Numbered from the stretch's first letter, positions 19,961 through 34,561 are shown. The stretch is 34,561 bases of DNA from Deferribacteres bacterium (GCA_013152795.1 JAADFS010000192.1:1-34561); one strand, 5' to 3'. Notes: generated by a model not told the origin, from the sequence alone. Numbers and translations are program-made.

Positions 19961-22377
19961 ATGAAATCAAGAAATTCATATTTGATTCCGGGCGTTCTCA
20001 TAATCGCCCTGCTGTTGCCCTATTCAGCACTTGCCGGCTGGCGGACGGGGTGTGTGGATTGTCCACGTTATTTCGATGGTATGAATTCCAGGTCACTGGC
20101 GCTGGATTCTTCGGGGAATCCCCATATTGTTTATGGAAGTAGAGACGGTGTATATTATGCCTGGTATGACGGAGTTTCCTGGCATACTGAGACAGTGAAC
20201 ATCGATGGAGGCATATTTGCCTCCATAGCCATAGCCATAGACTCGTCAGATAAGGTACATATTATTTATTATGACGGTTATCCAAATAGGGCCCTGAAAT
20301 ACGCCACGAATGCCTCCGGCTCATGGGTGTCTGAAGTTGTGGACAGCGACGGAGGCTGGGCTACCTCCATAGCCATAGACTCATCAGATAAGGTGCATAT
20401 CAGTTATTCCTATTATCGTGGTTATCCGGACTACATCAATGCCCTGAAGTATGCGACGAATGCCTCCGGCTCATGGGTGTCTGAAGTTGTGGACAGCGAC
20501 GGAGGCTGGGCTACCTCCATAGCCATAGACTCATCAGATAAGGTGATATCAGTTATAATGTTAGTTATCCAAATTATGACCTGAAATATGCAACAAATGC
20601 CTCCGGCTCATGGGCGACTGAGATTGTGGACAGCGGTGAGGGCTGGGCTACCTCCATAGCCATAGACTCATCAGATAAGGTGCATATCAGTTATAATGTT
20701 GATTATCCAAATTATGACCTGAAATATGCAACAAACGCCTCAGGCTCATGGGTGTCTGAGATTGTGGACAGCAGAAGCATGTATCCCTCCATAGCCATAG
20801 ACTCATCGGATAAGGCGCATATCAGTTATTATAACCATTCGGATTACGACCTGAAATATGCCACGAATGCCTCCGGCTTATGGGTGACCGAGATTGTGGA
20901 CGATAAAGCAAGTTTAAAAGGAGACAATGGTAACTCCTCCATAGCGGTGGATTCATCAGATAATGTGCATATCAGTTATCTGTTCGCTCATATCGGTTAT
21001 ACGTCTGATTATGAATATGGCTTTACTGACCTCAAGTATGCAGTGAATTCATCCGGTTCATGGGTAATCGAGACAGTAGACAGCGGCAGAAAAGCCAGCG
21101 ATGGTTCAGTAGCAATAGATTCGTCAGATATGCTGCATATCAGTTATGTAACCGATCAGGGTTTGATGTACATGACGAATGCCTCAGGCTCATGGGTGAC
21201 TGAGATTGTGGACAGCGGCGGAAGCTGGGCTCCTTATATAGCCATAGACTCCTCAGATAAGGCGCATATCAGTTATGATAGTTATCCCTTCGAGAGGGGT
21301 GTAAAATATGCCACGAATGCCTCCGGTTCATGGGTAACTGAGATTATGGACAGCAAGAGCAAAGCCGATGTTACTTCCATAGCCATAGACTCATCGGATA
21401 AGGTGCATATTAGTTATTATAGCTATGATCCGGATTACGCCCTGAAATATACAACGAATGCCTCAGGCTTATGGGTGACTGAGATTGTGGACAGCAAAAG
21501 CAAATCTGCGGTTCCTTCTATAGCCATAGACTCCTCAGATAAGGCGCATATTAGTTATAACAGCAATTATCCGGATTTCGACCTGAAATACGCCACGAAT
21601 GCTTCGGGCTCATGGGTGTCTGAGATTGTGGACAGCTATGTGGACATTTTTTCCTCCATAGCCATAGACTCCTCAGATAAGGCACATATTAGTTATAACA
21701 GCAATTATCCGGATTCCAGCCTGAAATACGCCACTAATGCTTCGGGCTCATGGGTGTCTGAGATTGTGGACAGCGACGGAGGCTGGTCTAACTTCATAGC
21801 CATAGACTCCTCAGATAAGGCGCATATTAGTTATATCTCCCGTAGCAGTTTGAAATACGCTACGAATGCCTCCGGCTCATGGGAGGTTGAAACAGTGGTG
21901 AATCAAGGCAGGCCTAACTCCATAGCCATGGATTCATCAGACAATGTTTATATTATTTATTATGATATAGAGCATTATGACCTCAGGTATGCAACCAACA
22001 AGCCCTTACCGGAAATCTCGGCGACCGACTCGGTCGATCCCGCCGGTGACCTCCTGATACCGTTTGGTGAAGTAAGGGGAGGCAGGCCGTCAAGACAGAC
22101 AGCCACTGTAACAAATACCGGAGACGCAGACCTTGTAATCAGCGAGGTATATTTGACAGGCGCGGATCCGGAACAATTCGATATACGAAAGGACACCTGT
22201 TCAAATATGCCTGTAGCGCCCTCCGGAAGCTGCACGATAGATGTGGTATTCACTCCTCAAGAGGCAGGTGTGTACAGTGCAAGGCTGGGCATAGACAGCA
22301 ACGACCTCGACACACCGGAGCTTTATGTAAAGTTAACCGGGACAGGTATTGCAATGCGCATGAAAAGCCGCAAATAG
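19961..22377 (+). pseudogene. Paralogous 14-repeat beta-propeller/Ig-like secreted protein, frameshifted
   Basis: ORFs 19961-20584 and 20626-22377 join if one C is restored between 20545 and 20546 (aaggtg-atatc versus aaggtgcatatc in neighbouring repeats). Signal peptide and C-terminal domain are closely similar to the upstream gene. Could be a sequencing error. Confidence 0.8.
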
Positions 22378-23838: not shown

Positions 23839-26319
23839 CTACTCATACGGCAGCATTGATTTATGCGCCTCGGGAAACGGGTTTGCCTTGCCGGTCCTTA
23901 TGTCGTATTCGGTCCTGGTGATGATCTCTTCCTTCATCGCCTCGTTCAGGGCATTGAAGTATGCCGAATATCCCGATACCCTTACGAGAAGCTCCGGATA
24001 TTTATCCGGATTATTCCTGGCATCAAGAAGGGTTTCGTAAGACATGATATTAAACTGCACATGAAGGCCCCCGCTCCTGAAATACGCCTCCACAGCCGAG
24101 GCGAATCTCTCGAGGTCCTCCTCACCTGAAACAGACGGATATTTCAGGTTGAGGGCCTCTCCCATGGGGATGCAGAGACCGTCAAGGCCGCCCACTGTCC
24201 TGAGGCACGCGGCCAGGTCCCGGGCGGCCTGCGATACAGGGGTGATGCCGCTGGCGAATACCTCATAAGCCCTTCTGCCGTTGGGAAGCGCGCCGGAGAG
24301 CTTTCCCTGGCCTGCATGATTGGTCGTTGTCCAGTAAGCCGGCCTGTATTTGCCTCCGCGGTAGTTTGTATGGCCCTGGTAGAAATCATACAGGAAGCGT
24401 ATGAGGTTCTGCGAGTTCTTCACTGCAACAGGGTCTTCAGTGCCGTATTTGGGGGTCCTGTTGACAAGGTATGCATGCAGCTTTTCATGCCCGTTGAAGT
24501 TCGCCTTCAGGGCCTGGATGAGTTCGGCGAATGTGCATTTCCCCTCAATGAAGACCGCCTTCTCTATTGCATTGAGTGAATCAACGGTGTCGGCAAACCC
24601 GATATGGGTCGCGCCCGAGGCATTATACAGCGCGCCTCCGAATATAAGGTCCTTCCCCTTTTCCATAGGCCCCTCGAAAAAGGCCGAAAGCAGGGGCGTG
24701 GGATATATCTCCTGGTGCACGAGGCCGAAGTATTCGTTTAATTCAATGGCCTTGCCCATGAGCCAGGAAGCCTGTTTCTTGAATGCCTCCCAGAACTCTT
24801 CAAAGCTCCTGAACTCCTCGGGGTCGCCGGTCACAGGCCCTATCTGTTCATCACCGACAACGGGTCTTTTGCCGTTGTAGAGGGCCAGCTCAAGCGCCGA
24901 GACAAGATTGAACATGATGGAGCTTGAGGCATCATAGCTCTTGCCGGGGATGCCCATCTCCACGCAGCCGATTATACCGTAGTCCCGCGCATGTTCTGTC
25001 TTCACACCCTGGTTTTCAAGTGTCACAATGTCAACCACGTCATTATGAAATGCCGGCACGGCCCTTGTGTTCACTATAACCTCCGCGACCCTGTCGCGGT
25101 ACTCCCTGGTATTTTTCTCATAATGATACCTCGCGTTCATACTGGGGTCCCTGAGTTTGAGAAGCTCCGTCACCCTGAGTATGATATAGGTCAATTCATT
25201 GACCGCATCTTCACCGTTTTCGTCCACCCCGCCTACCGTAACCGCCGGGACGGTACCCGCTCCGCCCCAGAGTTCTTCAGCGGTCTCGGGCACGAGATTG
25301 GTGTTGTCGTTGAGCTTCAGCCAGAGACAGCTCATTATTTCAACGGCCTCTCTGTCGGTCAGGGTCCCGTTGTCAATATCATTCCTGTAGTATTTATAGA
25401 GCACCTGGTCGAGCCTCCCCGGGCTCATGGCCATATTGATGCTTTCGGCGTGGATGCCCACCTGTATAATCCACAGGGAATTGACGGCCTCGCGGAATGT
25501 GCCCGCAGGTTTTGCAGGCACCCTTGCGCATATTTCGGACATTGTCCGGAAATTCTGTTTCCTGAACGGGTCGTCCGTCTCTGCTGCAAGCTCAGCGGCC
25601 CTTCTGCTCAGGTTCCGTGCGTATGCAATAATTCCCTGAAGCGCTATTTGGACAGCCTGGTAAAACTCAAGCTTCTGTTTGTTTTCACCGGTGATATTCC
25701 CGCTCTCCCGGATATGCCTTTCCCTTGAGGCTGCCTCTTCAATGATGAATTCCAGCCCCCTGTCCAGTGCAACCTCGTATCCGGGAATGGTATGGGATAT
25801 GGTGCCGGCCTTGCCTGCTATGAAAAAGACGAACTTTTCAAAGAGGCCCATGCACTCGGGATTGTTATATTTTTTCCTGGTGTATTCAATAATGTTCCGC
25901 TCCATCCAGTAGGGGTAAATCTCGAAGTTCAGCTCATCGGCATCTTCAGGCGACAGCTTCAGCGGATTCTTCTTCCTGTCACTGATGGTATCCAGCTCGG
26001 GCCATATGGTCATCCCTGTATACTCCGGGTACACGGGTGCACCGAAGGCCTTTGAAGTGGTCGTGCCTGCAAGCAGGTTATCATCGAAAAAGAGCGGTTC
26101 CTTGTTGGAAAGGAAATAATTGACCGCCTTTGCATAACGGATTTCCGCGGGCTCCTCATCAGTGGACATATTCTTCAGATAATGTGTTAAATGCCTCGCG
26201 CGTTCAATACAGACCTCGGGCCTTATTTTGATCTGTGATTCCCTCAGCCTCCTTATCAGGTCCAGGTTGTCAAGCGAATACTCCCTGAGCCGGATATCTT
26301 TTAAACGAATGGACGACAT
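23839..26319 (-). CDS. Glycyl radical enzyme (PFL superfamily, not canonical PflB), substrate unknown
   Basis: 826 aa; SPGRLDQ, TVGGVD..G.DAVNELTY, single-Cys loop IIGCVE, LPNGR, QFNI, Gly loop LLVRVSGYSAYF; AAGGAGG SD. Confidence 0.93.
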   Translation of the reverse strand: MSSIRLKDIRLREYSLDNLDLIRRLRESQIKIRPEVCIERARHLTHYLKNMSTDEEPAEIRYAKAVNYFLSNKEPLFFDDNLLAGTTTSKAFGAPVYPEYTGMTIWPELDTISDRKKNPLKLSPEDADELNFEIYPYWMERNIIEYTRKKYNNPECMGLFEKFVFFIAGKAGTISHTIPGYEVALDRGLEFIIEEAASRERHIRESGNITGENKQKLEFYQAVQIALQGIIAYARNLSRRAAELAAETDDPFRKQNFRTMSEICARVPAKPAGTFREAVNSLWIIQVGIHAESINMAMSPGRLDQVLYKYYRNDIDNGTLTDREAVEIMSCLWLKLNDNTNLVPETAEELWGGAGTVPAVTVGGVDENGEDAVNELTYIILRVTELLKLRDPSMNARYHYEKNTREYRDRVAEVIVNTRAVPAFHNDVVDIVTLENQGVKTEHARDYGIIGCVEMGIPGKSYDASSSIMFNLVSALELALYNGKRPVVGDEQIGPVTGDPEEFRSFEEFWEAFKKQASWLMGKAIELNEYFGLVHQEIYPTPLLSAFFEGPMEKGKDLIFGGALYNASGATHIGFADTVDSLNAIEKAVFIEGKCTFAELIQALKANFNGHEKLHAYLVNRTPKYGTEDPVAVKNSQNLIRFLYDFYQGHTNYRGGKYRPAYWTTTNHAGQGKLSGALPNGRRAYEVFASGITPVSQAARDLAACLRTVGGLDGLCIPMGEALNLKYPSVSGEEDLERFASAVEAYFRSGGLHVQFNIMSYETLLDARNNPDKYPELLVRVSGYSAYFNALNEAMKEEIITRTEYDIRTGKANPFPEAHKSMLPYE

Positions 26320-26388
26320 ACCGCCTCCTTTATGGTTTCCTGACAGTACAAATAATTCTCACATTCCCCCGGCAGATTCCTCTGCCCT

Positions 26389-26405
26389 GTTTATGCAACA
26401 TTAAG
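26389..26405 (+). repeat. Dispersed intergenic motif, copy A
   Basis: GTTTATGCAACATTAAG; adjacent hairpin GGCAGA-TTCC-TCTGCC at 26371-26386. Confidence 0.85.
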
Positions 26406-26412
26406 ATAAAGT

Positions 26413-26820
26413 TTAAATTGGATACAAAGCAACATTGAGTCTGTTGAAATGTTTCCTGTTGAAAGTCACTACACCTTCAGCATTAAGCTTTTTCGACAGG
26501 ACAGAGATATACGCATCTGCAAACTCTACCGGGTGCATTTTGTAAACCTCTAATGACTCTGTAATAATGTCAATATCGGAAACATCAAGTCCGGGAATAC
26601 CCGCGATGCTTAAAAGGCAGTTGTATATTTCACTCTTTTTCATTTCATAAAATGATTTCAATGTCCATGCAAGCTCAAAAAACACGGGCGGTCCCGTCAC
26701 AAGACGTATCTTCCCTTTTTCCGCCCTGTCCAGAAGTTTTTCAACCCTGTCCGCATGTTCAGGTTCGTCGTTGACAAGATAACGGATGAAGACATTTGTA
26801 TCAACAAAGTATTTCTTCAT
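26413..26820 (-). CDS. vapC: PIN-domain toxin (VapC-like)
   Basis: FVDTNVFIRYL, FELAW, FADAYI, VTFNRKHF PIN signature; overlaps the antitoxin stop. Confidence 0.88.
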   Translation of the reverse strand: MKKYFVDTNVFIRYLVNDEPEHADRVEKLLDRAEKGKIRLVTGPPVFFELAWTLKSFYEMKKSEIYNCLLSIAGIPGLDVSDIDIITESLEVYKMHPVEFADAYISVLSKKLNAEGVVTFNRKHFNRLNVALYPI

Positions 26821-27053
26821 TTATCCTTTCCCGTCACATGTTTTGAAACAGCCGCCTGCATTGCCCTGCGGGCAGAACCTTTTTTCGCGGGGATACTGCC
26901 CCTTAACTTTCTGAAAGAGGGAACCGATTTCAAAATAATTTCTCCATCCCTCATAATAATCTCAACCTTGTCTCTGGGTTTTATGTCAAGCTTATTCCTT
27001 ATGTAGGAAGGAAGCGTTATCTGCCCCTTTGATGAAACTGTAGCAAATCCCAT
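26817..27053 (-). CDS. AbrB/MazE/SpoVT-family antitoxin
   Basis: ATVSSKGQITLPSYIRNKLDIKPRDKVEI; AAGGAGG SD; upstream of the PIN gene. Confidence 0.9.
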   Translation of the reverse strand: MGFATVSSKGQITLPSYIRNKLDIKPRDKVEIIMRDGEIILKSVPSFRKLRGSIPAKKGSARRAMQAAVSKHVTGKDK

Positions 27054-27075
27054 CAAATTCCTCCTTTTCCTTTTT

Positions 27076-27100
27076 GCTTTACTATTATATCATGTAAAGC
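27076..27100 (-). promoter_or_regulatory. TA promoter with palindromic operator
   Basis: GCTTTAC-N11-GTAAAGC inverted repeat enclosing an extended -10 (minus strand TG-A-TATAAT). Confidence 0.7.
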
Positions 27101-27137
27101 GGAGCCTCTGTTTATCCGAGTTAATATTAAGGACTTA

Positions 27138-28154
27138 TCACAGGACATGAAGGTTCACGCCCATTTTCCTGAACAGTTTATCAAGATGGCCCATTGCGAA
27201 TCTCTGATGCTCTTTTACCGCTTCCTGGAACCGGAACCAGTCCGTCTTTTCCCTGTTCACTCCATCCCTCCAGTAAAGCCTGTCACGAAGCATTGTAAAC
27301 ATTGAGAGCAATCCGCTGTCGGAATCCCTCAGTCCACGCACTTCGGTTTCTATGGCATCGTTAAACCAGTCGGCTTCGTCAAACTCCCCCAGCCATGGGG
27401 CGATTTCCTTGTAGCGGCTGATGCGCTCTTCGGTATACCACTTGCTGTCGCCGGAAAATGACGGGCCCATGGCCCTGATCAGCCAACTGCGCAAATCATC
27501 CCATCCGGCATTGGCATTTATGTTAATGCCCTGAAGGTAACTGCGGTATTTGCCGTAAATCTTCTCCGCAGCATCAATGTAACGCTCTGTATTGTCAATC
27601 TCGTCATTAACAAGGCGGCAGTCTTCCCACCTGTGGGCAGGCCAGTCTGGATGGTGTTCGGCATCGGCATGGCCGATATCGGGCTTCGGGTCCATCCCTA
27701 TATTGTTGAAGTAGTCATACCAGCCCACGAAGTTCTGATGCGCCCATGTGTCCGCGTAAGCGTGTGTCGCAATGCCTATCCGGTAGAGCCTCGTATCTTC
27801 CGGGGCCCTGAACGCCTCGTCCATCATGCTGCTGGCTGTCTCATTGCCGGGGGTAGTGTTTAACAGATGCATCTTGCCGTCAGTGCGGCAGGCCCTCTCG
27901 TCCGCAGGGTCGCCGGGGACGAAATGAAACACGGGATATATCCTCATCAACTTTCTTTTCGGCTTGAGAATATTCATTGTCTGTGAGATATAGTTTTCAT
28001 ACGGTTTTCCGCCCGAGCGGTCTTCGATCTTGAGGCATACATCGTTTTCATCAACGTACTCCGAGGCCGTTGCAATGGTTTTGGCCTCGGCCTCACTGAA
28101 ACCAGCGGCCCTGGCGATTATCCCCGTCATGTAATAATGAAATTCAGTATCCAT
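27138..28154 (-). CDS. Conserved hypothetical protein (DUF6765-like; His/Asp pattern reminiscent of Zn-dependent phospholipase C/nuclease fold)
   Basis: M...FHYY....AR.AGF, YVD, FHFVP, GIATHAYADTWAHQNF, IGHADA; AAGGAGG SD. Family name is from recall, not a search. Confidence 0.55.
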   Translation of the reverse strand: MDTEFHYYMTGIIARAAGFSEAEAKTIATASEYVDENDVCLKIEDRSGGKPYENYISQTMNILKPKRKLMRIYPVFHFVPGDPADERACRTDGKMHLLNTTPGNETASSMMDEAFRAPEDTRLYRIGIATHAYADTWAHQNFVGWYDYFNNIGMDPKPDIGHADAEHHPDWPAHRWEDCRLVNDEIDNTERYIDAAEKIYGKYRSYLQGININANAGWDDLRSWLIRAMGPSFSGDSKWYTEERISRYKEIAPWLGEFDEADWFNDAIETEVRGLRDSDSGLLSMFTMLRDRLYWRDGVNREKTDWFRFQEAVKEHQRFAMGHLDKLFRKMGVNLHVL

Positions 28155-28212
28155 ACCATTCCCTCCTTTTTATTACTTTGCCTTGCAGTGGCATAAAAAC
28201 ACCGGTGTTCAA

Positions 28213-28305
28213 AGGGTGCAGTTGTCAGGGTGCAGGGTGCAGAAAAAAATACGAAATTTCATTCTGAACCCTGAACTCTGAACCCGTAACTCGCAACTCG
28301 CTCAC
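28213..28305. repeat. Opposed heptamer tandem arrays forming an imperfect hairpin
   Basis: AGGGTGC/AGTTGTC/AGGGTGC/AGGGTGC (28213-28240) facing CTGAACC/CTGAACT/CTGAACC/CGTAACT/CGCAACT (28264-28298). Confidence 0.75.
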
Positions 28306-28328
28306 CCGTTTATGCAACATTAAAGTTA
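28305..28328 (+). repeat. Dispersed intergenic motif, copy B
   Basis: CCCGTTTATGCAACATTAAAGTTA. Confidence 0.85.
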
Positions 28329-28366
28329 AGGTTCAGTGATAAGAGCCCCCTCCTTTGTGTCGGTTA

Positions 28367-30235
28367 TCACCGGTCGGTGTCAAAGCCGATAAACTCCCTG
28401 ACCGCATACCAGTCGTCATCCATCAGCATAAAGTATCCGAAATTTTCATACTTATAGACAGCCGGGTCTTTTGCGGGATCATACGGTATCCCGGGTTTCG
28501 TCGAATAAAGGAGCTGCCCCAGGTACAGGCCGTCGGCTATCCTGACCAGCTCGTCTATGCAGAGGTTGTCCGGGGGCATGGTGTGTAATTCCGGCCACCG
28601 GTAGTTGAACTGCAGCACCTCCCTGCCGCCGTTTTCGGGGTTGATGGATCTGCTGTTGGCTGCAATGAAGTAAAAACTCTTGACATAAATGTCATCGCTT
28701 TTTTCCTTTTCATCCGGATATTCCACAATCATCCCCGTTCTGTCCAGTAGTTCTATAAACGCAGTAACCGGCAGGGAAAGCCCGAGGTCCTTCCTGTATG
28801 TATTGGCCCCGATGATAACGGGATTCATCCCCTCATAATACCGCGCGCTGTCTCCGATATACTTCCTTATCCCGTCTACGGATGAAGGTGTAAAGGTCTT
28901 GCCCGTCCACGGTGAAAACGGCCTGACGGCAGGGTATATGTCATTCAGCACGGTCCTGTCGAACTTTTTCAGGAAACCGCCGTTGTTGAAAGAGACGACA
29001 CCTCCGTGCAGGAAACCGCTGATGCCGCGGGGCGACTCTCCGCATTTAAACACCTCGAGAAGCCTGGCAAAGTACCGTTCCTTGTACCCCGGCCCTTTCT
29101 GTATCCCGTCGTAGATATCCCGCAGGTAATGGAGTATGGTCTCCCTGTCCCCCATATCCTCGGCAATTGCCCTGCACTCGGGAGAATCCCTGAACGTGAA
29201 TGTCCTGAATTTGCCGGAGAGGTCTTGGGACAAACTGTACGCAATTTCGGGAAAGAGCCTGTTCTTTTCACCAAGCCACGTGTCGTCCATGAGAAGGAAA
29301 TACCCGAAATTCCGGTACTTGTAATCCTTTACCGGCACGTCGGGGTCATAATCTTTAAACAGATATTTCAGGGAAGTTGCATAATAGAGCTTCCCGAGGT
29401 AGAGGCCCTTGGATATCTCAACTATTTCATCAATGAGGAGCCTGTTGGGAAAGACATTACCAAGGTTTTTCCAGCGGTAATTCAGGGCCAGCACCTCTTT
29501 TCCAGGATGGGCCGTGTCTACAGACATGGCTTTCCGCGCGAGAAAGAGGCCTCCCCTGGCATGTATCCATGAACGTTGCCTCTTGTCCGCGCCGGGCACT
29601 GCCTCCATATCTATAACGGCAGACAGCACATAGTTTGAAAGATTGTTGACAACTCCATTCTTTTCTTTGCGGAAAGAGTTTATCCCCAGATACACGGTAT
29701 CTCCTCCGGGGACGGCACCGCCGGTGAATTTCTTTACCTTCTCAGGCCCTATCTTCCTAAAATCCTTTCCTGCCCACGGTGATGTATCGGACAGCAGCCT
29801 GCCGTAAAGCACCTGAAGCATGTCAACCTCTCTGCCTATGCCGAGCCTCTGCCGGGTCTTCTCAAGGAAGGTGTAAACATCGGTTCCCGTCTTAAGGCTT
29901 ATGGTGATGCCGTGGTAGAATCCGTCAACTTCCCCGGGTGTCCTGCCGCAGAGGAAGAGCCGGTCGAGCTTGCCGGCGATTTCCCCGTGCGAGGTGCCTT
30001 TATTGAGGATGTCCGTATAGTAGCGCATCAGTTCCAGCGGGTTGTTCCTGCCCTTCATGTCCTTCTGCATTATCTCCATAAACAGGGGGTCTTCCCTGTC
30101 GCACGTATCCGCAAGGGTGAAATCCCGGGACACGCCGGGCCCGGCCGGAATGTCCCCGCCTCCCCGGCCCTCTTTTTTTATGCACGAGTAGAGAAAAAAC
30201 ACTGATAATACCACGCAGATGACTTTTATCCTCAT
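28367..30235 (-). CDS. Putative lipoprotein with two tandem copies of an uncharacterised domain
   Basis: Start moved to ATG 30235 (MRIKVICVVLSVFFLYSC, lipobox-like). Motifs F.CG..P, SPW.GK.F, EVL..NYRW, IDE.V.I..GLYLG and YKY.NFGYF.LMDD.W each occur twice. Confidence 0.7.
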   Translation of the reverse strand: MRIKVICVVLSVFFLYSCIKKEGRGGGDIPAGPGVSRDFTLADTCDREDPLFMEIMQKDMKGRNNPLELMRYYTDILNKGTSHGEIAGKLDRLFLCGRTPGEVDGFYHGITISLKTGTDVYTFLEKTRQRLGIGREVDMLQVLYGRLLSDTSPWAGKDFRKIGPEKVKKFTGGAVPGGDTVYLGINSFRKEKNGVVNNLSNYVLSAVIDMEAVPGADKRQRSWIHARGGLFLARKAMSVDTAHPGKEVLALNYRWKNLGNVFPNRLLIDEIVEISKGLYLGKLYYATSLKYLFKDYDPDVPVKDYKYRNFGYFLLMDDTWLGEKNRLFPEIAYSLSQDLSGKFRTFTFRDSPECRAIAEDMGDRETILHYLRDIYDGIQKGPGYKERYFARLLEVFKCGESPRGISGFLHGGVVSFNNGGFLKKFDRTVLNDIYPAVRPFSPWTGKTFTPSSVDGIRKYIGDSARYYEGMNPVIIGANTYRKDLGLSLPVTAFIELLDRTGMIVEYPDEKEKSDDIYVKSFYFIAANSRSINPENGGREVLQFNYRWPELHTMPPDNLCIDELVRIADGLYLGQLLYSTKPGIPYDPAKDPAVYKYENFGYFMLMDDDWYAVREFIGFDTDR

Positions 30236-30500
30236 TGACAGCCCCTTTCCGTTAAATGTCTTCTGTGTTAACCTTAAATCATTCTCGTCCCCTTGCGGGA
30301 AAGAAATATCCTCTTGGAAATACCTCAAACAGGGACAGTATTACCCCTTTATCTTGCTGAATTATAGTTTATTCACAGCCAAATGATTTGTAAACCTTAC
30401 AGTGGCAAAAAACATCGCCGGCGTGACAGGAGAGCCGAAGGTTTTACCGGAAATTTTCAACCGTTTTTTGTCAAATTTTGTAATTTCACGATTCCGGGTA

Positions 30501-30530
30501 TTGGCATATAAGGTGAAACTTCTGTATAAT
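30501..30530 (+). promoter_or_regulatory. Sigma70-type promoter, probably yielding a leaderless mRNA
   Basis: TTGGCA, 18 nt, TATAAT, then 6 nt to ATG 30537; no SD. Confidence 0.6.
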
Positions 30531-30536
30531 TCAATC

Positions 30537-31010
30537 ATGCTGTCCGAGGATAAAATTCAAATACTGTGCGATAAAATGAAAAAGGAGTTCAAGTTTTTCA
30601 AGAGCTTAAGCGATGAAGAACTCAGGGCCTTTCTCAGTTTCTGTGACAACAGGCAGGTGGATGCGGGACTCAATCTGTGGAGTGAAGGCGATTCAGACAA
30701 TTACGCGGTTTTTATCATTTCAGGGAAAATAGGCATAAAGAAGAAAACAGAGTTCGAGGGAAAATACATGATTGTCGGCACATTCGCCAAAGGCACGGTG
30801 GTGGGTGAGCTTTGCCTGCTCACGGATCAGGTCAGGTCCGTTACGGCCGTAATACTTGAACCCGTTGACATCGTGACCCTCTCCAGCAAGGACTTTGAAA
30901 AGCTTATGGAAAAATATCCCATGCTGGGGCTCAAGCTTCTCAGGCACATCTTCCTCGTGATATCAAAGCGGCTCAACAGGTCTACCGAGCGAATGGCTTC
31001 GATATTTTAA
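30537..31010 (+). CDS. Stand-alone cyclic-nucleotide-binding domain protein (Crp-like sensory domain, no HTH)
   Basis: FFKSLSDEEL, LWSEGD, FIISGKIGI, GTVVGELCLL...RSVTA; ends after the C-helix. Confidence 0.85.
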   Translation: MLSEDKIQILCDKMKKEFKFFKSLSDEELRAFLSFCDNRQVDAGLNLWSEGDSDNYAVFIISGKIGIKKKTEFEGKYMIVGTFAKGTVVGELCLLTDQVRSVTAVILEPVDIVTLSSKDFEKLMEKYPMLGLKLLRHIFLVISKRLNRSTERMASIF

Positions 31011-31037
31011 ACGGTCTTTTATATGCATCATAGCCGT

Positions 31038-31087
31038 TGAACCCGCAACCCGCAACCCTCCTGCCCGTTTATGCAACATTAAGGTTA
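31038..31087 (+). repeat. Heptamer run followed by dispersed motif copy C
   Basis: TGAACCC-GCAACCC-GCAACCC (31038-31058), then CCCGTTTATGCAACATTAAGGTTA (31064-31087). Confidence 0.85.
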
Positions 31088-31097
31088 CCTGTCAAAA

Positions 31098-31127
31098 TTG
31101 ACAAGTCCGTATCGTTAGTGTTAATTT
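31098..31127 (+). promoter_or_regulatory. Possible sigma70 promoter for the 105-aa gene
   Basis: TTGACA (31098-31103) followed 18 nt later by TAATTT, preceded by TG-T; AT-rich downstream. Confidence 0.4.
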
Positions 31128-31167
31128 AGTTATTATTAATATTAATACCCCCCGGAGAGTTCTGGAA

Positions 31168-31485
31168 ATGACAAGAGCAAAGAAAATCGGGATCATTATT
31201 CTCCTTGTCGGAATCTGCCTGCCTACAGCCACGCTTCCCTTTATCACGGAGTTTCATCCCAAACCCGACATATGCCTGACATCAAACTTTTTCGGAAACA
31301 TGGGCAACATGATAGTGGCATTCGGTGCAGAACAAACGGCCGTCTCCGGTAATTCCGGCACAGGAGGCAGCCCTCTGATTGCAATACCCTACAGATATCT
31401 CTTTGCCCTCGGCGTCATACTGACCTGTGTCGGAATAGGAATAATAGTTTTATCCCCCGGTAAGAAGCCTGACCGCAAATCCTGA
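31168..31485 (+). CDS. Small membrane protein with two hydrophobic segments
   Basis: IGIIILLVGICLP and YLFALGVILTCVGIGIIVL; GGAG SD. Confidence 0.7.
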   Translation: MTRAKKIGIIILLVGICLPTATLPFITEFHPKPDICLTSNFFGNMGNMIVAFGAEQTAVSGNSGTGGSPLIAIPYRYLFALGVILTCVGIGIIVLSPGKKPDRKS

Positions 31486-31666
31486 ATCCCCGCAACCTCC
31501 CCGCTTTCCGCGTCTTTTTCCTTTTAACACAAGCCCCTCGAGAAAAATTTTAAAGAACCGCGCCTGTTATGCCGAACAAAAATTAACGCCGGTCGTTTTA
31601 AACCGGAGGGATGACCGGCGCGGATGCTGGATTAAGTTTTCTTGAGAACACTTATTGTGAGAAAAG

Positions 31667-32459
31667 ATGATGCGTTTCTTTGAAAAGCTGGGTGCCGATG
31701 TCCTGTATCAGGTCAACCAGATCGGCAGGATGGGCATATTTCTCTTTTATTCCGCCATCAGCATAGTAATGCCGCCGTACAAGGTATTCCCTGTCGTCAA
31801 GCAGATATACCATATAGGCGCGCGTTCAGTGTTTGTCATTCTATTCACCGGTGTCTTTACCGGCATGGTCCTGGGGCTTCAGGGGTACAACACCCTCAGC
31901 AAGTTCGGTGCAGAGGGGCTCCTGGGGACTGCCGTGGCCCTAAGCCTTATCAGGGAGTTGGGCCCTGTCATGGCGGCGCTTATGGTAACGGGCAGGGCAG
32001 GCTCCGCCATATGCGCCGAGATAGGCATCATGCGCATCTCCGAACAGATCGACGGACGCCCTGGAGTGCATGGCTATTGATCCGCACAAGTATGTCGTAG
32101 CCCCCAAGTTCATAGCGGGAATCGTCTCCCTTCCACTGCTGACCGCTCTTTTTAACGTGATCGGAATCCTGGGGGGATATGTGGTTGGGGTAGGCCTCCT
32201 CGGAATCAATGAAGGGGCATATTTTTCAAGTATGTACAACGACGTGGAGTTCGGAGATATTTATATGGGATTTGTCAAATCCCTCTGCTTCGGGGTTCTG
32301 ATTATATGGATATGCTCTTCAAAGGGGTATTTTGTCCACTTGACAAAAGGCGGGGGGTTTGGAGCCGAAGGCGTAAGCAGTGTCACCACCAATGCGGTGG
32401 TCATGTCATCAGTCTGCATACTGTTATTCGATTATTTCCTGACATCGGTGCTTTTATGA
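31667..32459 (+). pseudogene. mlaE: MlaE lipid-asymmetry ABC permease, frameshifted by a 4-bp duplication
   Basis: RELGPVMAALMVTGRAGSAICAEIGIMRISEQID continues as ALECMAIDP if one GACG of GACGGACG (32051-32058) is removed; the C-terminal half has GAEGVSSVTTNAVV. Confidence 0.88.
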
Positions 32460-33232
32460 GTGAAAAACCGGTTGTACAGCTTATAGACGTAAAAAAATCA
32501 TACGGCTCGCAGCAGGTCTTAAAGGGAGTGAACCTGTCGATAATGGAGGGGAAGACAACCGTTATCGTCGGCGGAAGCGGCCAGGGCAAGAGCCAGATCA
32601 TCAAGCATATCCTCGGCCTGGTCAGGCCTGACAGCGGCAAAGTGCTTGTCTACGGAAAGGACATAAGCAGGGCCGGCAAAAGGGAACTCCGGGCGATCAG
32701 GGCCAATTTCGGCGTCCTCTTTCAGAATGCGGCGCTCTTTGATTCAATGACCGTGTATGACAATGTGGCGCTTCCCCTCAGGGAACGGACAAGGCTGTCC
32801 GAGGCTGAGATAAAAAAAATCGTGGACAGAAACCTGGCGCTTATGGACATCATCGGCAGCGACGACAAGTATCCCGCACAGATCAGCGGCGGCATGAGAA
32901 AAAGGGTCGGTCTCGCGCGTGCGCTCGTGCTGGAACCGCGGATAATCTTTTTTGATGAACCCACGACAGGGCTTGACGTCGCAAAGAGCAACGAGATATA
33001 CCGCGTATTCTTCCGCACACAGACCCAGTTGAAATACACCGCCGTTATCGTCAGCCACGATGTGCCGAAGATATTCAAACTGGCCGATTACGTGGCATTG
33101 CTTCATAACGGCGTTATTCACAGTTGTATTACTCCCGAAGAGTTCCAGCTTTCTGACGACCCCGTGATCAGGGAATTTGTCGAGACCACCATGGGTCAGC
33201 TTTATTCAAGTGAAATGGAGGGTGAATTATGA
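32456..33232 (+). CDS. mlaF: MlaF ABC ATPase
   Basis: Start ATG 32456 overlapping the mlaE stop; GGSGQGKS, LFQNAALFDSMTV, ISGGMRKRVGLARAL, FFDEPTTGLD, VSHD. Confidence 0.92.
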   Translation: MSEKPVVQLIDVKKSYGSQQVLKGVNLSIMEGKTTVIVGGSGQGKSQIIKHILGLVRPDSGKVLVYGKDISRAGKRELRAIRANFGVLFQNAALFDSMTVYDNVALPLRERTRLSEAEIKKIVDRNLALMDIIGSDDKYPAQISGGMRKRVGLARALVLEPRIIFFDEPTTGLDVAKSNEIYRVFFRTQTQLKYTAVIVSHDVPKIFKLADYVALLHNGVIHSCITPEEFQLSDDPVIREFVETTMGQLYSSEMEGEL

Positions 33233-33669
33233 AAAAGATAAACATTGAGACCGCGGTAGGGATTTTTATAATCCTCGGCCTGCTCAGCCTTGGATACCTT
33301 TCTGTGAAACTGGGCGATGTCAGCCTGTTCGGGACGAAACAGTATACGGTAAGGGCCCGCTTTGCGAACGTATCCGGACTGAAGAAGGGAGCCGCCGTAG
33401 AAATTGCAGGGGTCAGGGTGGGAAAGGTCGCGGACATCAGGCTTGAGGACTATGAGGCCGACGTGGAACTTCTGATCGACCCGGATGTAAAACTGCAGGA
33501 GGACGCAATAGCCTCCATAAGGACACAGGGTATAATCGGCGATAAATACATCAAGATCAAGACAGGCGGCGCAGATGAGTATATCGGGGATAACGGGGAG
33601 ATCCTGGAGACCGAATCCGCGATTGAGCTGGAGGAACTCATAAGCAAATATATCTTCGAGAAAGAGTAG
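33229..33669 (+). CDS. mlaD: MlaD MCE-domain protein
   Basis: ETAVGIF TM, F.NVSGLKKGAAVEIAGVRVGKV, ASIRTQGIIGDKYI, LEELISKYIF. Confidence 0.93.
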   Translation: MKKINIETAVGIFIILGLLSLGYLSVKLGDVSLFGTKQYTVRARFANVSGLKKGAAVEIAGVRVGKVADIRLEDYEADVELLIDPDVKLQEDAIASIRTQGIIGDKYIKIKTGGADEYIGDNGEILETESAIELEELISKYIFEKE

Positions 33670-33735
33670 TGCTTAACTCTGCAAGAGCGGAAGGCGATAT
33701 TATTTTAAAGCACTAAAAAACAGAGGAGGCAGATA

Positions 33736-34365
33736 ATGATGAAAAGGACACTGCAAATCATAATTATAACGGCACTGGCCCTGGGTATGTCCGGAATAAG
33801 CGCGGCGGAAAATACACCTATAGAGGCGATAAGATCGACAGTTGACGCCGTCCTTGATATAATGAAAGATAAAGAACTTGCTGCACCCGGCAGGAGAGCG
33901 GAACGGCGGGAGAAGATACGGGCGCTGATCAGGGACCGTTTTGATTTCAGGGAGATGTCGAGACGCTCACTCGCCAGGCACTGGAAGAAACTAAGCCCTG
34001 AAGAGGAAAGAGAGTTCGTAGCCGTTTTTTCCGACTTGCTGGAGTCCTCGTATATAGGGAAAATCGAGGCATACACGGATGAAAAAGTCACCTATGACAA
34101 GGAAACCATCAGGGGCAAGGGTAAATACGGGATAGTCAATACAACAATTGTCACAAAGAATGTCGATATCCCGATTGACTACAAGCTTATTTTCAGGAAC
34201 GGAAAATGGTGGATTTACGATGTCGTCATCGAAGGGGTGAGCTTTATCAGTACCTACAGGAGCCAGTACAACAAGATCATAGTTAAACAATCTTTTGCAA
34301 AACTCCTCGAACGGATGAAGAGCAAGCTGAAAGAAATAAAGGCCATGGAAGCGAAAGAGGCTTAA
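33736..34365 (+). CDS. mlaC: MlaC/Ttg2D periplasmic phospholipid-binding protein
   Basis: Signal peptide, FDFREMSRRSLARHW, WWIYDVVIEGVSFISTYRSQY. Confidence 0.92.
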   Translation: MMKRTLQIIIITALALGMSGISAAENTPIEAIRSTVDAVLDIMKDKELAAPGRRAERREKIRALIRDRFDFREMSRRSLARHWKKLSPEEEREFVAVFSDLLESSYIGKIEAYTDEKVTYDKETIRGKGKYGIVNTTIVTKNVDIPIDYKLIFRNGKWWIYDVVIEGVSFISTYRSQYNKIIVKQSFAKLLERMKSKLKEIKAMEAKEA

Positions 34366-34382
34366 CCTTAATGTTGCATAAA
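34363..34382 (-). repeat. Dispersed intergenic motif, copy D (inverted relative to A-C)
   Basis: TAACCTTAATGTTGCATAAA, the exact reverse complement of 31068-31087; begins at the mlaC stop codon. Confidence 0.85.
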
Positions 34383-34385
34383 TGT

Positions 34386-34550
34386 GGCAAGGGAGGCTGC
34401 CGTAAAACCTTTATAAAGCGATAGGATATTGGAAATAACTCTTTATTGCAGGAAGTAACGGAGAGTGAAGTTGCAAAAGACGTCAAAATGCCGTGCGGAA
34501 TATTTCCTGAAGGTATCGCAGATAAAGCTTTTCCGGCAGCCTCCCTTGCC
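34386..34550. mobile_element. 165-bp element with long terminal inverted repeats (MITE/REPIN-like or structured RNA)
   Basis: 34386-34414 pairs with 34522-34550 (first 17 bp perfect, 27/29 overall); further inner pairings GCGATA/TATCGC and GGAAATA/TATTTCC. Confidence 0.55.
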
Positions 34551-34561
34551 CGCACGCAATG

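Follow-up and report, generated by a model that had tools for sequence, protein, structure and literature searches.

What is the 15-bp sequence TTTATGCAACATTAA that recurs beside the 3' ends of genes in this contig? In the window, meaning the whole 34.5-kb stretch of DNA that was analysed, it has four exact matches, compared with 0.05 expected by chance, and none of 100 shuffled windows reached four. The copies, named A to D, are:

26390-26404, + strand: copy A, exact 15-base sequence match
28309-28323, + strand: copy B, exact 15-base sequence match
31068-31082, + strand: copy C, exact 15-base sequence match
34368-34382, - strand: copy D, exact 15-base sequence match

All four positions had been given by a sequence-only reading of this DNA and are confirmed here, together with the 20 bp, TTTATGCAACATTAAGGTTA, common to copies C and D. 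That reading had also seen no copy in the first 26 kb, and indeed a search allowing up to two mismatches across the window returned nothing beyond the four. The empty region, with 0 left ends where 4.9 are expected, is unremarkable, because across the genome 27 of 113 bins of 10 kb are likewise devoid of them. Noting that the copies seemed to delimit accessory gene blocks, the reading offered recombination sites of a cassette system, ends of a non-autonomous element (possibly of IS903 type) or a regulon operator as explanations. Only the second stands, and with a different parent: the motif is very probably the left inverted repeat of a MITE, i.e. of a tiny non-coding mobile DNA of an ordinary kind, and not part of a gene-cassette system.

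The limits of this element were apparent when 197 exact copies were aligned: conservation ends abruptly 6 bp outside the motif and extends inward for more than 60 bp. The element is short and without coding capacity. It consists of CC-TTAATGTTGCATAAA, a GC-rich hairpin, variable modules and TTTATGCCACTGTAA-GG, and its terminal inverted repeats, CCTTAATGTTGCATAAA and CCTTACAGTGGCATAAA, are identical at 14 of 17 positions. The sizes of 243 adjacent left-to-right pairs of ends show modes at 61 bp and at 208-212 bp, with consensus lengths of 65 and 214 bp and folding energies of -23.9 and -93.5 kcal/mol; to judge from the sequences, the shorter form looks like a 214-bp element from which the middle has been removed. 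Of 233 elements, 60 have the same 4-mer on either side, as against 18.1 (maximum 28) in shuffles, and position by position the two flanks match on the exact diagonal with z = 5.5, 4.5, 4.8, and 2.5. Even where neither flank is TTAA, the 4-mers are identical in 44 of 150 cases. Insertion is thus accompanied by a 4-bp, A/T-rich target duplication, mostly TTAA (16), TAAA (14), TTTA (7), or ATAA (5), with TTGA and TTAG also present.

Within the window, five elements of this family and one adjoining gene block were delimited as follows:

26366..26404, - strand: copy A, element without right end (left end 26390-26404, hairpin 26371-26386)
26405..27129, - strand: PIN / MazE-type toxin-antitoxin (TA) block (Pfam PIN and MazE_antitoxin)
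28181..28325, - strand: copy B, complete 145-bp element (right end 28181-28197, left end 28309-28323)
30395..30450, - strand: element E, partial, without left end (right end 30395-30411)
31030..31084, - strand: copy C (left end 31068-31082 plus GG; inner boundary approximate)
34362..34561, + strand: copy D, long-form element (left end 34368-34382; matches the 214-bp consensus)

The right end that partners copy B and the fifth, partial element E are additions to the earlier description, in which the copies partitioned blocks of 2-3 kb; the ends pair instead over 61 or about 210 bp. Other parts of that description hold. The gene content is as claimed (a PFL-like enzyme, the PIN/MazE pair, DUF6765, a cNMP-binding protein and MlaE/F/D/C), and copies A, B, and D, placed 0-45 bp after a stop codon in the same relative orientation, do follow the PIN gene by 8 bp, a 653-aa ORF by 43 bp and mlaC by 2 bp, all three in that orientation. 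The different structures reported on the ATAAA side of each copy are also present, namely the hairpin at copy A, heptamer arrays at copies B and C and the 165-bp fold-back at copy D, and they are interchangeable internal modules of one element. An Rfam scan of 26000-34561 gave no match at any element; its sole match was a lone CRISPR-DR16 inside the DUF6765 ORF.

Comparison with two sister species of the same genus (G001 and G002; the genome of the window is G000) shows how these individual elements have changed. One of the two ends is missing in A, in C and in E. Copy A, with its hairpin GGCAGA..TCTGCC, has lost its outer CC to the TA insertion that begins at 26405, and at the orthologous spot a left end is found in both sisters, as part of a full long-form element in G002. 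The TA block sits at the TTAA of the left end of copy A, outside the MITE proper, and has ATTAAG at both junctions. A search for it in the sisters gave no match in the 100% complete assembly of G001 and matched no more than 27 bp in G002; among the three genomes of the genus it is, on sequence comparison, an accessory insertion of this genome alone. A sequence resembling the left end flanks the TA block on both sides, in a weak alignment. Copy B has opposed heptamer arrays as its interior and is followed directly by TTAA (28326-28329). The corresponding spacer of G002 has no element and measures 47 bp instead of 211 bp, while G001 keeps the right end; the G002 spacer was dropped as a clean empty site, being too diverged to give a clean junction. 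Element E, which retains remnants of the hairpin and of the GTAAAACC module, extends over the GTG that is predicted to start the cNMP-binding ORF; G001 carries an element of the 61-bp type at this position and lacks the 653-aa gene situated between B and E. In copy C, antisense to the flanking + strand genes, the left end is followed by a run of GTTGCGG-type heptamers and a right end is not recognisable; its ortholog in G001 is just two ends back to back. Copy D reads TTAA duplication (34362-34365), CC, left end, hairpin and fold-back, with the TAA stop of mlaC lying within the duplication, and both the contig and the window terminate inside it. In G001 the orthologous element is flanked by TTGA at either side, and the mlaC stop of that species lies in the left copy. 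Of three DNA runs belonging to a single study, one contains part of the stretch (share 0.28) and the other two next to none of it.

Genome-wide, the left end occurs 202 times exactly, 377 times with at most one mismatch and 521 times with at most two (0, 0, and 4 for a reversed control), and the right end 156, 297, and 415 times (control 0, 0, and 10), dispersed over the whole 324-contig assembly. According to crude longest-ORF gene calls, on which all positional statistics given here rest, 408 of the 521 left ends are intergenic, compared with 579 of 5000 random points, and of the 1273 intergenic spacers that measure 40 bp or more, 439 are occupied. Ends are also found at 300 bp or less from a contig end more often than expected (109 of 936, vs 66). 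The family is confined to one genus, with 377, 338, and 236 copies in its three genomes and 0-8 in 38 other relatives. Sites filled in one species and empty in another were found in both directions: where the flanks could be mapped, a clean empty site exists in the other species for 4 of 25 elements of G001 and for 3 of 19 of G000, and at all seven of these sites the 4-mer is present just once.

A parent-type IS with the same ends was identified in G001. On contig C48, TTAA is followed by CCTTACAGTGGCATAAA, a 481-aa ORF, TTTTTGCCACATTAAGG and a second TTAA, 1531 bp in all. One end of this IS is identical to the right end of the MITE (17/17) and the other matches the left end at 15 of 17 positions. 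A match of the motif to the inverted repeat of an IS is what the sequence-only reading had itself named as a refutation. The ORF scores 234 bits against NF033539, 'IS1380 family transposase' (cut-off 180), and 149.6 bits against PF13701, covering model positions 11-432 of 435. One ORF, a length of 1531 bp, 17-bp ends and TTAA on both sides likewise fit the IS1380 family, to which this IS belongs on the basis of its sequence, with the ORF as putative transposase; the IS903/IS5 type suggested earlier does not apply. A full IS with MITE-type ends was met as a single instance, in G001. The proteins closest to its transposase are metagenome sequences without an IS name (best 90% identity). G002 also has an IS1380-type gene (contig C299), which was discarded as parent, since similar ends are absent and its DNA does not resemble that of the G001 IS. 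In the 85% complete G000 assembly, searches for an IS1380-type transposase were negative (PF13701 0 hits, PF01609 0 hits, tblastn empty) and self-BLAST found no multi-copy IS. This gene could have been lost from the assembly, since only contigs of at least 3 kb are retained and homologous transposases are mostly on contigs of about 1.5 kb. Autonomous copies were also sought in G000 among 202 inward-facing pairs of ends 0.7-3.5 kb apart, but these mostly enclose ordinary genes between separate elements; the one candidate pair examined in full (C8) encloses a substrate-binding protein gene.

From these data, the MITE would be mobilised in trans by a DDE transposase of the IS1380 family that recognises its 17-bp ends, either the G001-type enzyme or a counterpart missing from the G000 assembly. 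It would insert into A/T-rich tetranucleotides (TTAA, TAAA, TTTA, and similar), which become duplicated. Copies landing within genes would be lost and the survivors would build up in intergenic spacers, often on stop codons, because the targets contain TAA.

The other explanations can be weighed against this evidence. Site-specific recombination sites for accessory cassettes, in the manner of an integron, would account for the TA block that adjoins copy A in this genome alone, for the 653-aa gene absent from G001 and perhaps for the left-end-like sequence on either side of the TA block, and it is true that gene content differs between sister species beside the copies. However, some 500 copies across 324 contigs, a partner end 61-210 bp away and not across a gene block, 4-bp duplications and an IS parent all speak against it, and no integrase-like or recombinase domain was found among 11 ORFs scanned in 23.8-34.4 kb. 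There are just two block differences, which ordinary indels or recombination between dispersed repeats can explain, so that a cassette system is very improbable. An operator, whereby the quasi-palindrome TTWATG-N3-CATWAA would be bound by a transcription factor with a large regulon, is slightly less probable again: a 15-bp, intergenic near-palindrome would suit it, but the non-palindromic centre and asymmetric flanks are conserved too, with conservation that reaches beyond 60 bp on just one side and into a longer element, the copies lie just after stop codons (median 17 bp) and not at promoter distance, they are associated with duplicated target 4-mers, and their number is far above that of any regulon. 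Finally, subterminal hairpins, high copy number and intergenic location are also features of REP/REPIN sequences moved by a RAYT, or of palindromic elements derived from IS200/IS605. Such elements make no target duplication, yet one is present here, and a search of all three genomes from the genus, including the one that is 100% complete, detected no Y1 transposase domain PF01797, whereas control genomes scored. Duplication and PF01797 absence together refute such an origin, which has the lowest probability of all.

A reading that would add to the MITE explanation, and not replace it, concerns transcripts. Paired elements between genes of the same direction are sense in 124 cases and antisense in 7; counting all ends in such spacers gives 230 vs 31 for left ends and 170 vs 15 for right ends, and a 364-kb sample of G001 gives 38 vs 6. 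Spacers with sense copies are short, the medians being 17 bp to the upstream stop and 38 bp to the next start, whereas those with the 7 antisense copies are longer (62 and 129 bp). Among 339 cases, the upstream stop codon falls within the duplication in 56 and within the left end proper (CCT-TAA-TG or CA-TAA-A) in 32, and all three lineage-specific insertions between same-direction genes are sense. As the target is near-palindromic, either orientation is expected, and the 124:7 bias is not explained by transposition alone; it would point to selection on transcripts. It is conceivable, if doubtful, that the element is a MITE by origin that has since been co-opted, or strongly filtered, as an orientation-dependent transcript element of operon spacers and 3' ends, where it could play a role in processing, stability, termination or translational coupling. 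On the other side, orthologous insertions shared between species make the counts non-independent and the gene calls are crude. Termination does not explain the bias, as a crude scan flags terminator-like structures on both strands (107 of 233 sense, 67 of 233 antisense). By eye, the consensus has no evident sigma-70-like promoter, and a sigma-54 or sigma-70 reading of the motif was abandoned for want of consistent -24/-12 or -35/-10 boxes; a scan for promoter-like sites gave 16, vs 11.3 (sd 3.0) in shuffles, which is no excess, with none inside elements. A more elaborate version is rather unlikely: that one strand acts in mRNA, in operon-internal processing, stability or coupling, antisense copies being polar and purged, and that in addition the roughly 500 near-identical copies serve as portable homology for the swapping of accessory blocks, for instance the TA pair at copy A, between strains.

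As a MITE, the element has several known counterparts. Correia elements of Neisseria, ERIC/IRU, BOX, RUP, and Nezha are short and non-coding, are bounded by inverted repeats, produce target duplications and reach hundreds of copies; they are intergenic, co-transcribed with their neighbours and sometimes mosaic. Their ends and parent families differ from those described here, and the present family is unusually marked in its sense bias (about 95%) and in its modular heptamer-array content. Integron attC sites share imperfect inverted repeats beside gene 3' ends in one orientation, but here there is no array and no integrase nearby, and hundreds of dispersed copies come with a target duplication and an IS parent. 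The ends of IS1380-family elements usually begin with CC. Like the members ISEcp1, IS1247, and ISPme1, the G001 IS has a single transposase ORF, as well as the family HMM score, a size of 1.53 kb, inverted repeats that are short and imperfect and a duplication of 4 bp, although it is not a named IS and the window holds non-coding derivatives only. The eukaryotic piggyBac elements likewise have a TTAA-type target duplication of 4 bp and ends that begin with CC; the present family differs from them in its looser target (TTAA, TAAA, TTTA, ATAA, TTGA, and TTAG). Table 2 of PMC3281130 lists IS1247 with 1672 bp, IR 16/13 and DR 5. An outward promoter and the mobilisation of adjacent genes as 'transposable modules', described for the IS1380 family in PMC9330008, are features of the known family, to which the likeness here is at the level of sequence. 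PMC10813416 takes the IS1380 transposases as prokaryotic outgroup for piggyBac. The literature searched for a MITE attributed to IS1380, or for MITEs of Thermodesulfovibrio or Nitrospirota, contained none, and a search for orientation bias of bacterial MITEs found nothing relevant.

What appeared to be a new cassette-acquisition system is replaced by a documented MITE family with its parent IS. For the annotation of Thermodesulfovibrio-like genomes, this family explains assembly breaks near element ends, the likeness among one third of intergenic spacers and ORFs that end in, or start inside, repeat sequence. Mobile-element biology gains a MITE derived from IS1380, the first in the literature searched, that combines a piggyBac-like 4-bp target with a very strong bias towards the sense of transcription.

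By every defining feature tested, the repeated element in the window is a miniature inverted-repeat transposable element (MITE), and the motif of the sequence-only reading, the 15-mer TTTATGCAACATTAA, belongs to its left end. The 15-mer matches exactly at four places (copies A to D), and no fifth match with up to 2 mismatches is found anywhere in the 34.5-kb window. The chance expectation is 0.05, and none of 100 shuffles contained at least four matches. The features concerned are the following:

26390, + strand: copy A of the motif
28309, + strand: copy B
31068, + strand: copy C
34368, - strand: copy D
26405-27129: insertion of a PIN/MazE toxin-antitoxin pair at the TTAA of a MITE end
28205-28300 and 31040-31060: examples of heptamer arrays (GGGTGCA, GTTGCGG and GTTCTGA types)
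30395-30411: right end of a fifth, partial element

The details described around these copies were borne out: C and D are identical over 20 bp, A, B and D follow stop codons in the same relative orientation (at 8, 43 and 2 bp), and a structured sequence lies on the ATAAA side of every copy. Pfam agrees with the gene content proposed, the ORFs around the copies matching a PFL-like glycyl-radical enzyme, PIN and a MazE-type antitoxin, DUF6765, a cNMP-binding protein and MlaE/F/D/C, while ORFs of 653 and 105 aa matched no Pfam family. Rfam gave no match at the elements.

The assembly to which the window belongs as contig C192 comprises 2.77 Mb in 324 contigs and is 85% complete. It holds 202 exact copies of the motif, 377 with at most 1 mismatch (183 forward and 194 reverse; reversed control 0) and 521 with at most 2, counts that may be slightly inflated, since numerous pairs of contigs resemble each other (86-94% identity over 0.5-4 kb), so that the bin may be a mixture of two related populations. 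When 197 exact copies are aligned as TTAATGTTGCATAAA, conservation stops sharply six bases to the left, with the consensus TTAACC, and persists for more than 60 bases to the right. Directly inside the motif, all exact copies inspected carry a GGCAG-loop-CTGCC hairpin, beyond which a conserved second end, ...GGCGATATTTTTATGCCACTGTAAGGTTAA, follows straight away, after a fold-back of about 165 bases, or after heptamer runs of the three types listed. This right end is an imperfect inverted version of the left one; with 0, 1 and 2 mismatches allowed, it has 156, 297 and 415 occurrences (control: 0, 0 and 10). Left and right ends form 243 pairs in the same orientation, with spacing peaks at 61 bp and 208-212 bp (62 elements at 60-69 bp, 80 at 200-219 bp). 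The short consensus, built from 59 copies with a median pairwise identity of 0.78, has 65 bp, and the long one, from 78 copies with a median of 0.82 and a maximum of 0.97, has 214 bp; each is predicted to fold into a single long hairpin (-23.9 and -93.5 kcal/mol, respectively). Judging from sequence, the short form appears to be the long form minus its middle.

Against a baseline of 14% of the genome lying within 300 bp of an end, fold-back arms do so in 147 of 158 and 227 of 256 cases, and heptamer arrays in 115 of 173 and 132 of 267. Because the heptamer arrays keep less strictly to the ends, they are probably a distinct class of intergenic repeat that is often nested in the MITE. They number hundreds of copies genome-wide, about half of them near MITE ends. 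A further repeat, starting GGAAAAAGGCCGTTCTCCGTGTCGG, has 26 copies, 23 of them no more than 300 bp from a MITE end, and sits right after the left-end hairpin (contigs C8, C126, C203, C230 and C279).

The four bases outside the terminal CC and GG are equal on both sides in 60 of 233 elements, compared with 18.1 (maximum 28) for shuffled partners. The positionwise excess lies solely on the diagonal of a direct 4-bp repeat (z = 5.5, 4.5, 4.8 and 2.5), and 44 of the 150 pairs with TTAA on neither side are still equal. The duplicated 4-mers are A/T-rich (TTAA 16, TAAA 14, TTTA 7, ATAA 5, TTAT 4, TGAA 3).

Members of the IS1380 family have ends that begin with CC and make duplications of 4-5 bp, and a transposase was therefore sought. 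The PF13701 and PF01609 profiles have no match in the genome under study and match in both sister-species genomes of the genus, G001 and G002. On contig C48 of G001, an ORF of 481 aa lies between TTAA followed by CCTTACAGTGGCATAAA... and ...TTTTTGCCACATTAAGG followed by TTAA, in an element of 1531 bp, one end of which agrees with the MITE right end at 17 of 17 positions and the other with the left end at 15 of 17. Against NCBIfam NF033539, 'IS1380 family transposase', the ORF reaches 234 bits (cut-off 180), and the parent type belongs to this family. Homologues of the ORF number 5570 at E <=1e-20, the best with 90% identity; many are found on contigs 1.52-1.56 kb long and, where named, are called IS1380 family transposase, which fits a multi-copy IS left by assemblers as a lone short contig. 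As the assembly under study retains only contigs of at least 3 kb, the missing transposase gene is weak evidence of absence. IS1380 members are credited with outward promoters and with the ability to move neighbouring DNA in 'transposable modules' (PMC9330008); IS1247 is listed at 1672 bp, with repeats of 16/13 bp and a duplication of 5 bp (Table 2 of PMC3281130); and IS1380 transposases are used as the outgroup of the TTAA-targeting piggyBac (PMC10813416).

Among the options of the sequence-only reading, that of a non-autonomous element is the one borne out, as a MITE with a target duplication and an IS parent bearing these ends. Were it a REP/REPIN element, a Y1/RAYT transposase would move it; none is found in the genus (three genomes), and REP-type elements are not known to make a target duplication, which is present here. 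A transcription-factor operator, proposed as part of a regulon, does not fit with conservation that is asymmetric and with a position after stop codons. The suggested cassette-like acquisition of genes was likewise set aside, given about 500 dispersed copies, a partner end only 61-210 bp away, the duplications and the IS parent. As for precedents for such a MITE, the titles and abstract starts of the matches listed in open-access full text describe none derived from IS1380; Thermodesulfovibrio with miniature inverted-repeat has no match in the open-access literature, and the matches listed there for MITEs in Nitrospir* concern only arthropod mites.

High copy numbers are confined to the genus, whose three genomes hold 377, 338 and 236 copies of the motif, compared with 0-8 in the 38 other relatives searched. 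Among 34 paired elements from a 364-kb sample of G001, non-random as its contigs were picked for long-form matches, 25 have both flanks on one contig of the genome under study, and 4 of these 25 correspond to clean empty sites with a single 4-mer (e.g. TTGA[element]TTGA vs TTGA). In the reverse direction, 3 of 19 mapped elements have clean empty sites in G001 (e.g. TTAG[element]TTAG vs TTAG). Both lineages have therefore gained, or precisely lost, copies since their split. A size class of about 89 bp is frequent in the G001 sample (L023-L042) and rare in the genome under study; the deletion derivatives that spread are therefore not the same in the two species.

At the spot orthologous to copy A, a left end is present in all three species, as a full long form in G002 and a remnant in G001. 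In the genome under study, the PIN/MazE block (725 bp), which has no counterpart in either sister genome, sits exactly at the TTAA of this left end, with ATTAAG on both sides; a left-end-like sequence recurs within it at 27100-27129. Copy B is not in G002, where the spacer has 47 bp; G001 has the right end of this copy and lacks the 653-aa gene between copy B and the fifth, partial element. At copy C, G001 has two ends back to back. Copy D is orthologous in G001 and flanked on both sides by TTGA, the left one supplying the stop codon of mlaC, and G001 carries an extra insertion between mlaD and mlaC beside a TTAA that is single in the genome under study. The gene blocks earlier seen between motif copies stand insofar as gene content varies beside the elements, but what delimits them is copies of a transposon rather than sites of recombination.

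Three other features of the window were recorded. Rfam CRISPR-DR16 has a single match at 28056-28102 (+), inside the DUF6765 ORF (38.7 bits, gathering score 35, E 1.3e-6), which corresponds to a CCGAGGCC...GGCCTCGG hairpin and is probably a chance hit, as no array surrounds it. MlaE (31667-32459) appears to be divided between overlapping ORFs at 31667-32080 and 32070-32459, of which the former covers only Pfam model positions 1-87 of 212; a sequencing error or a frameshift may be the cause. At 20229-21835, within the + strand ORFs 19961-20584 and 20626-22377, self-BLAST reveals internal tandem repeats (period about 138 bp, 82-84% identity).

Positions relative to genes, based on crude longest-ORF calls (2623 genes, 88% coding), place 408 of 521 left ends in intergenic DNA, compared with 579 of 5000 random points, and 439 of the 1273 spacers of at least 40 bp hold an end. 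Of the 211 paired elements that have a neighbouring gene on either side, 124 are found between genes of the same direction in the sense order (stop, left end, right end, start) vs 7 in reverse, the remainder being in divergent (46) or convergent (34) spacers. The same-direction split is 230 vs 31 for all left ends, 170 vs 15 for all right ends, and 38 vs 6 in the G001 sample. Median distances are 17 bp from the upstream stop to the left end and 38 bp from the right end to the next start. A simple scan for terminator-like structures flags copy A on the antisense strand; genome-wide, it flags 107 of 233 elements on the sense strand and 67 of 233 on the antisense strand. Where the upstream gene faces the left end (n=339), 56 of the stop codons fall in the duplication and 32 within the left end itself (20 at CCT-TAA-TG and 12 at CA-TAA-A). 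It is the bias in orientation, together with the provision of stop codons to neighbouring genes, that makes the elements worth following up.
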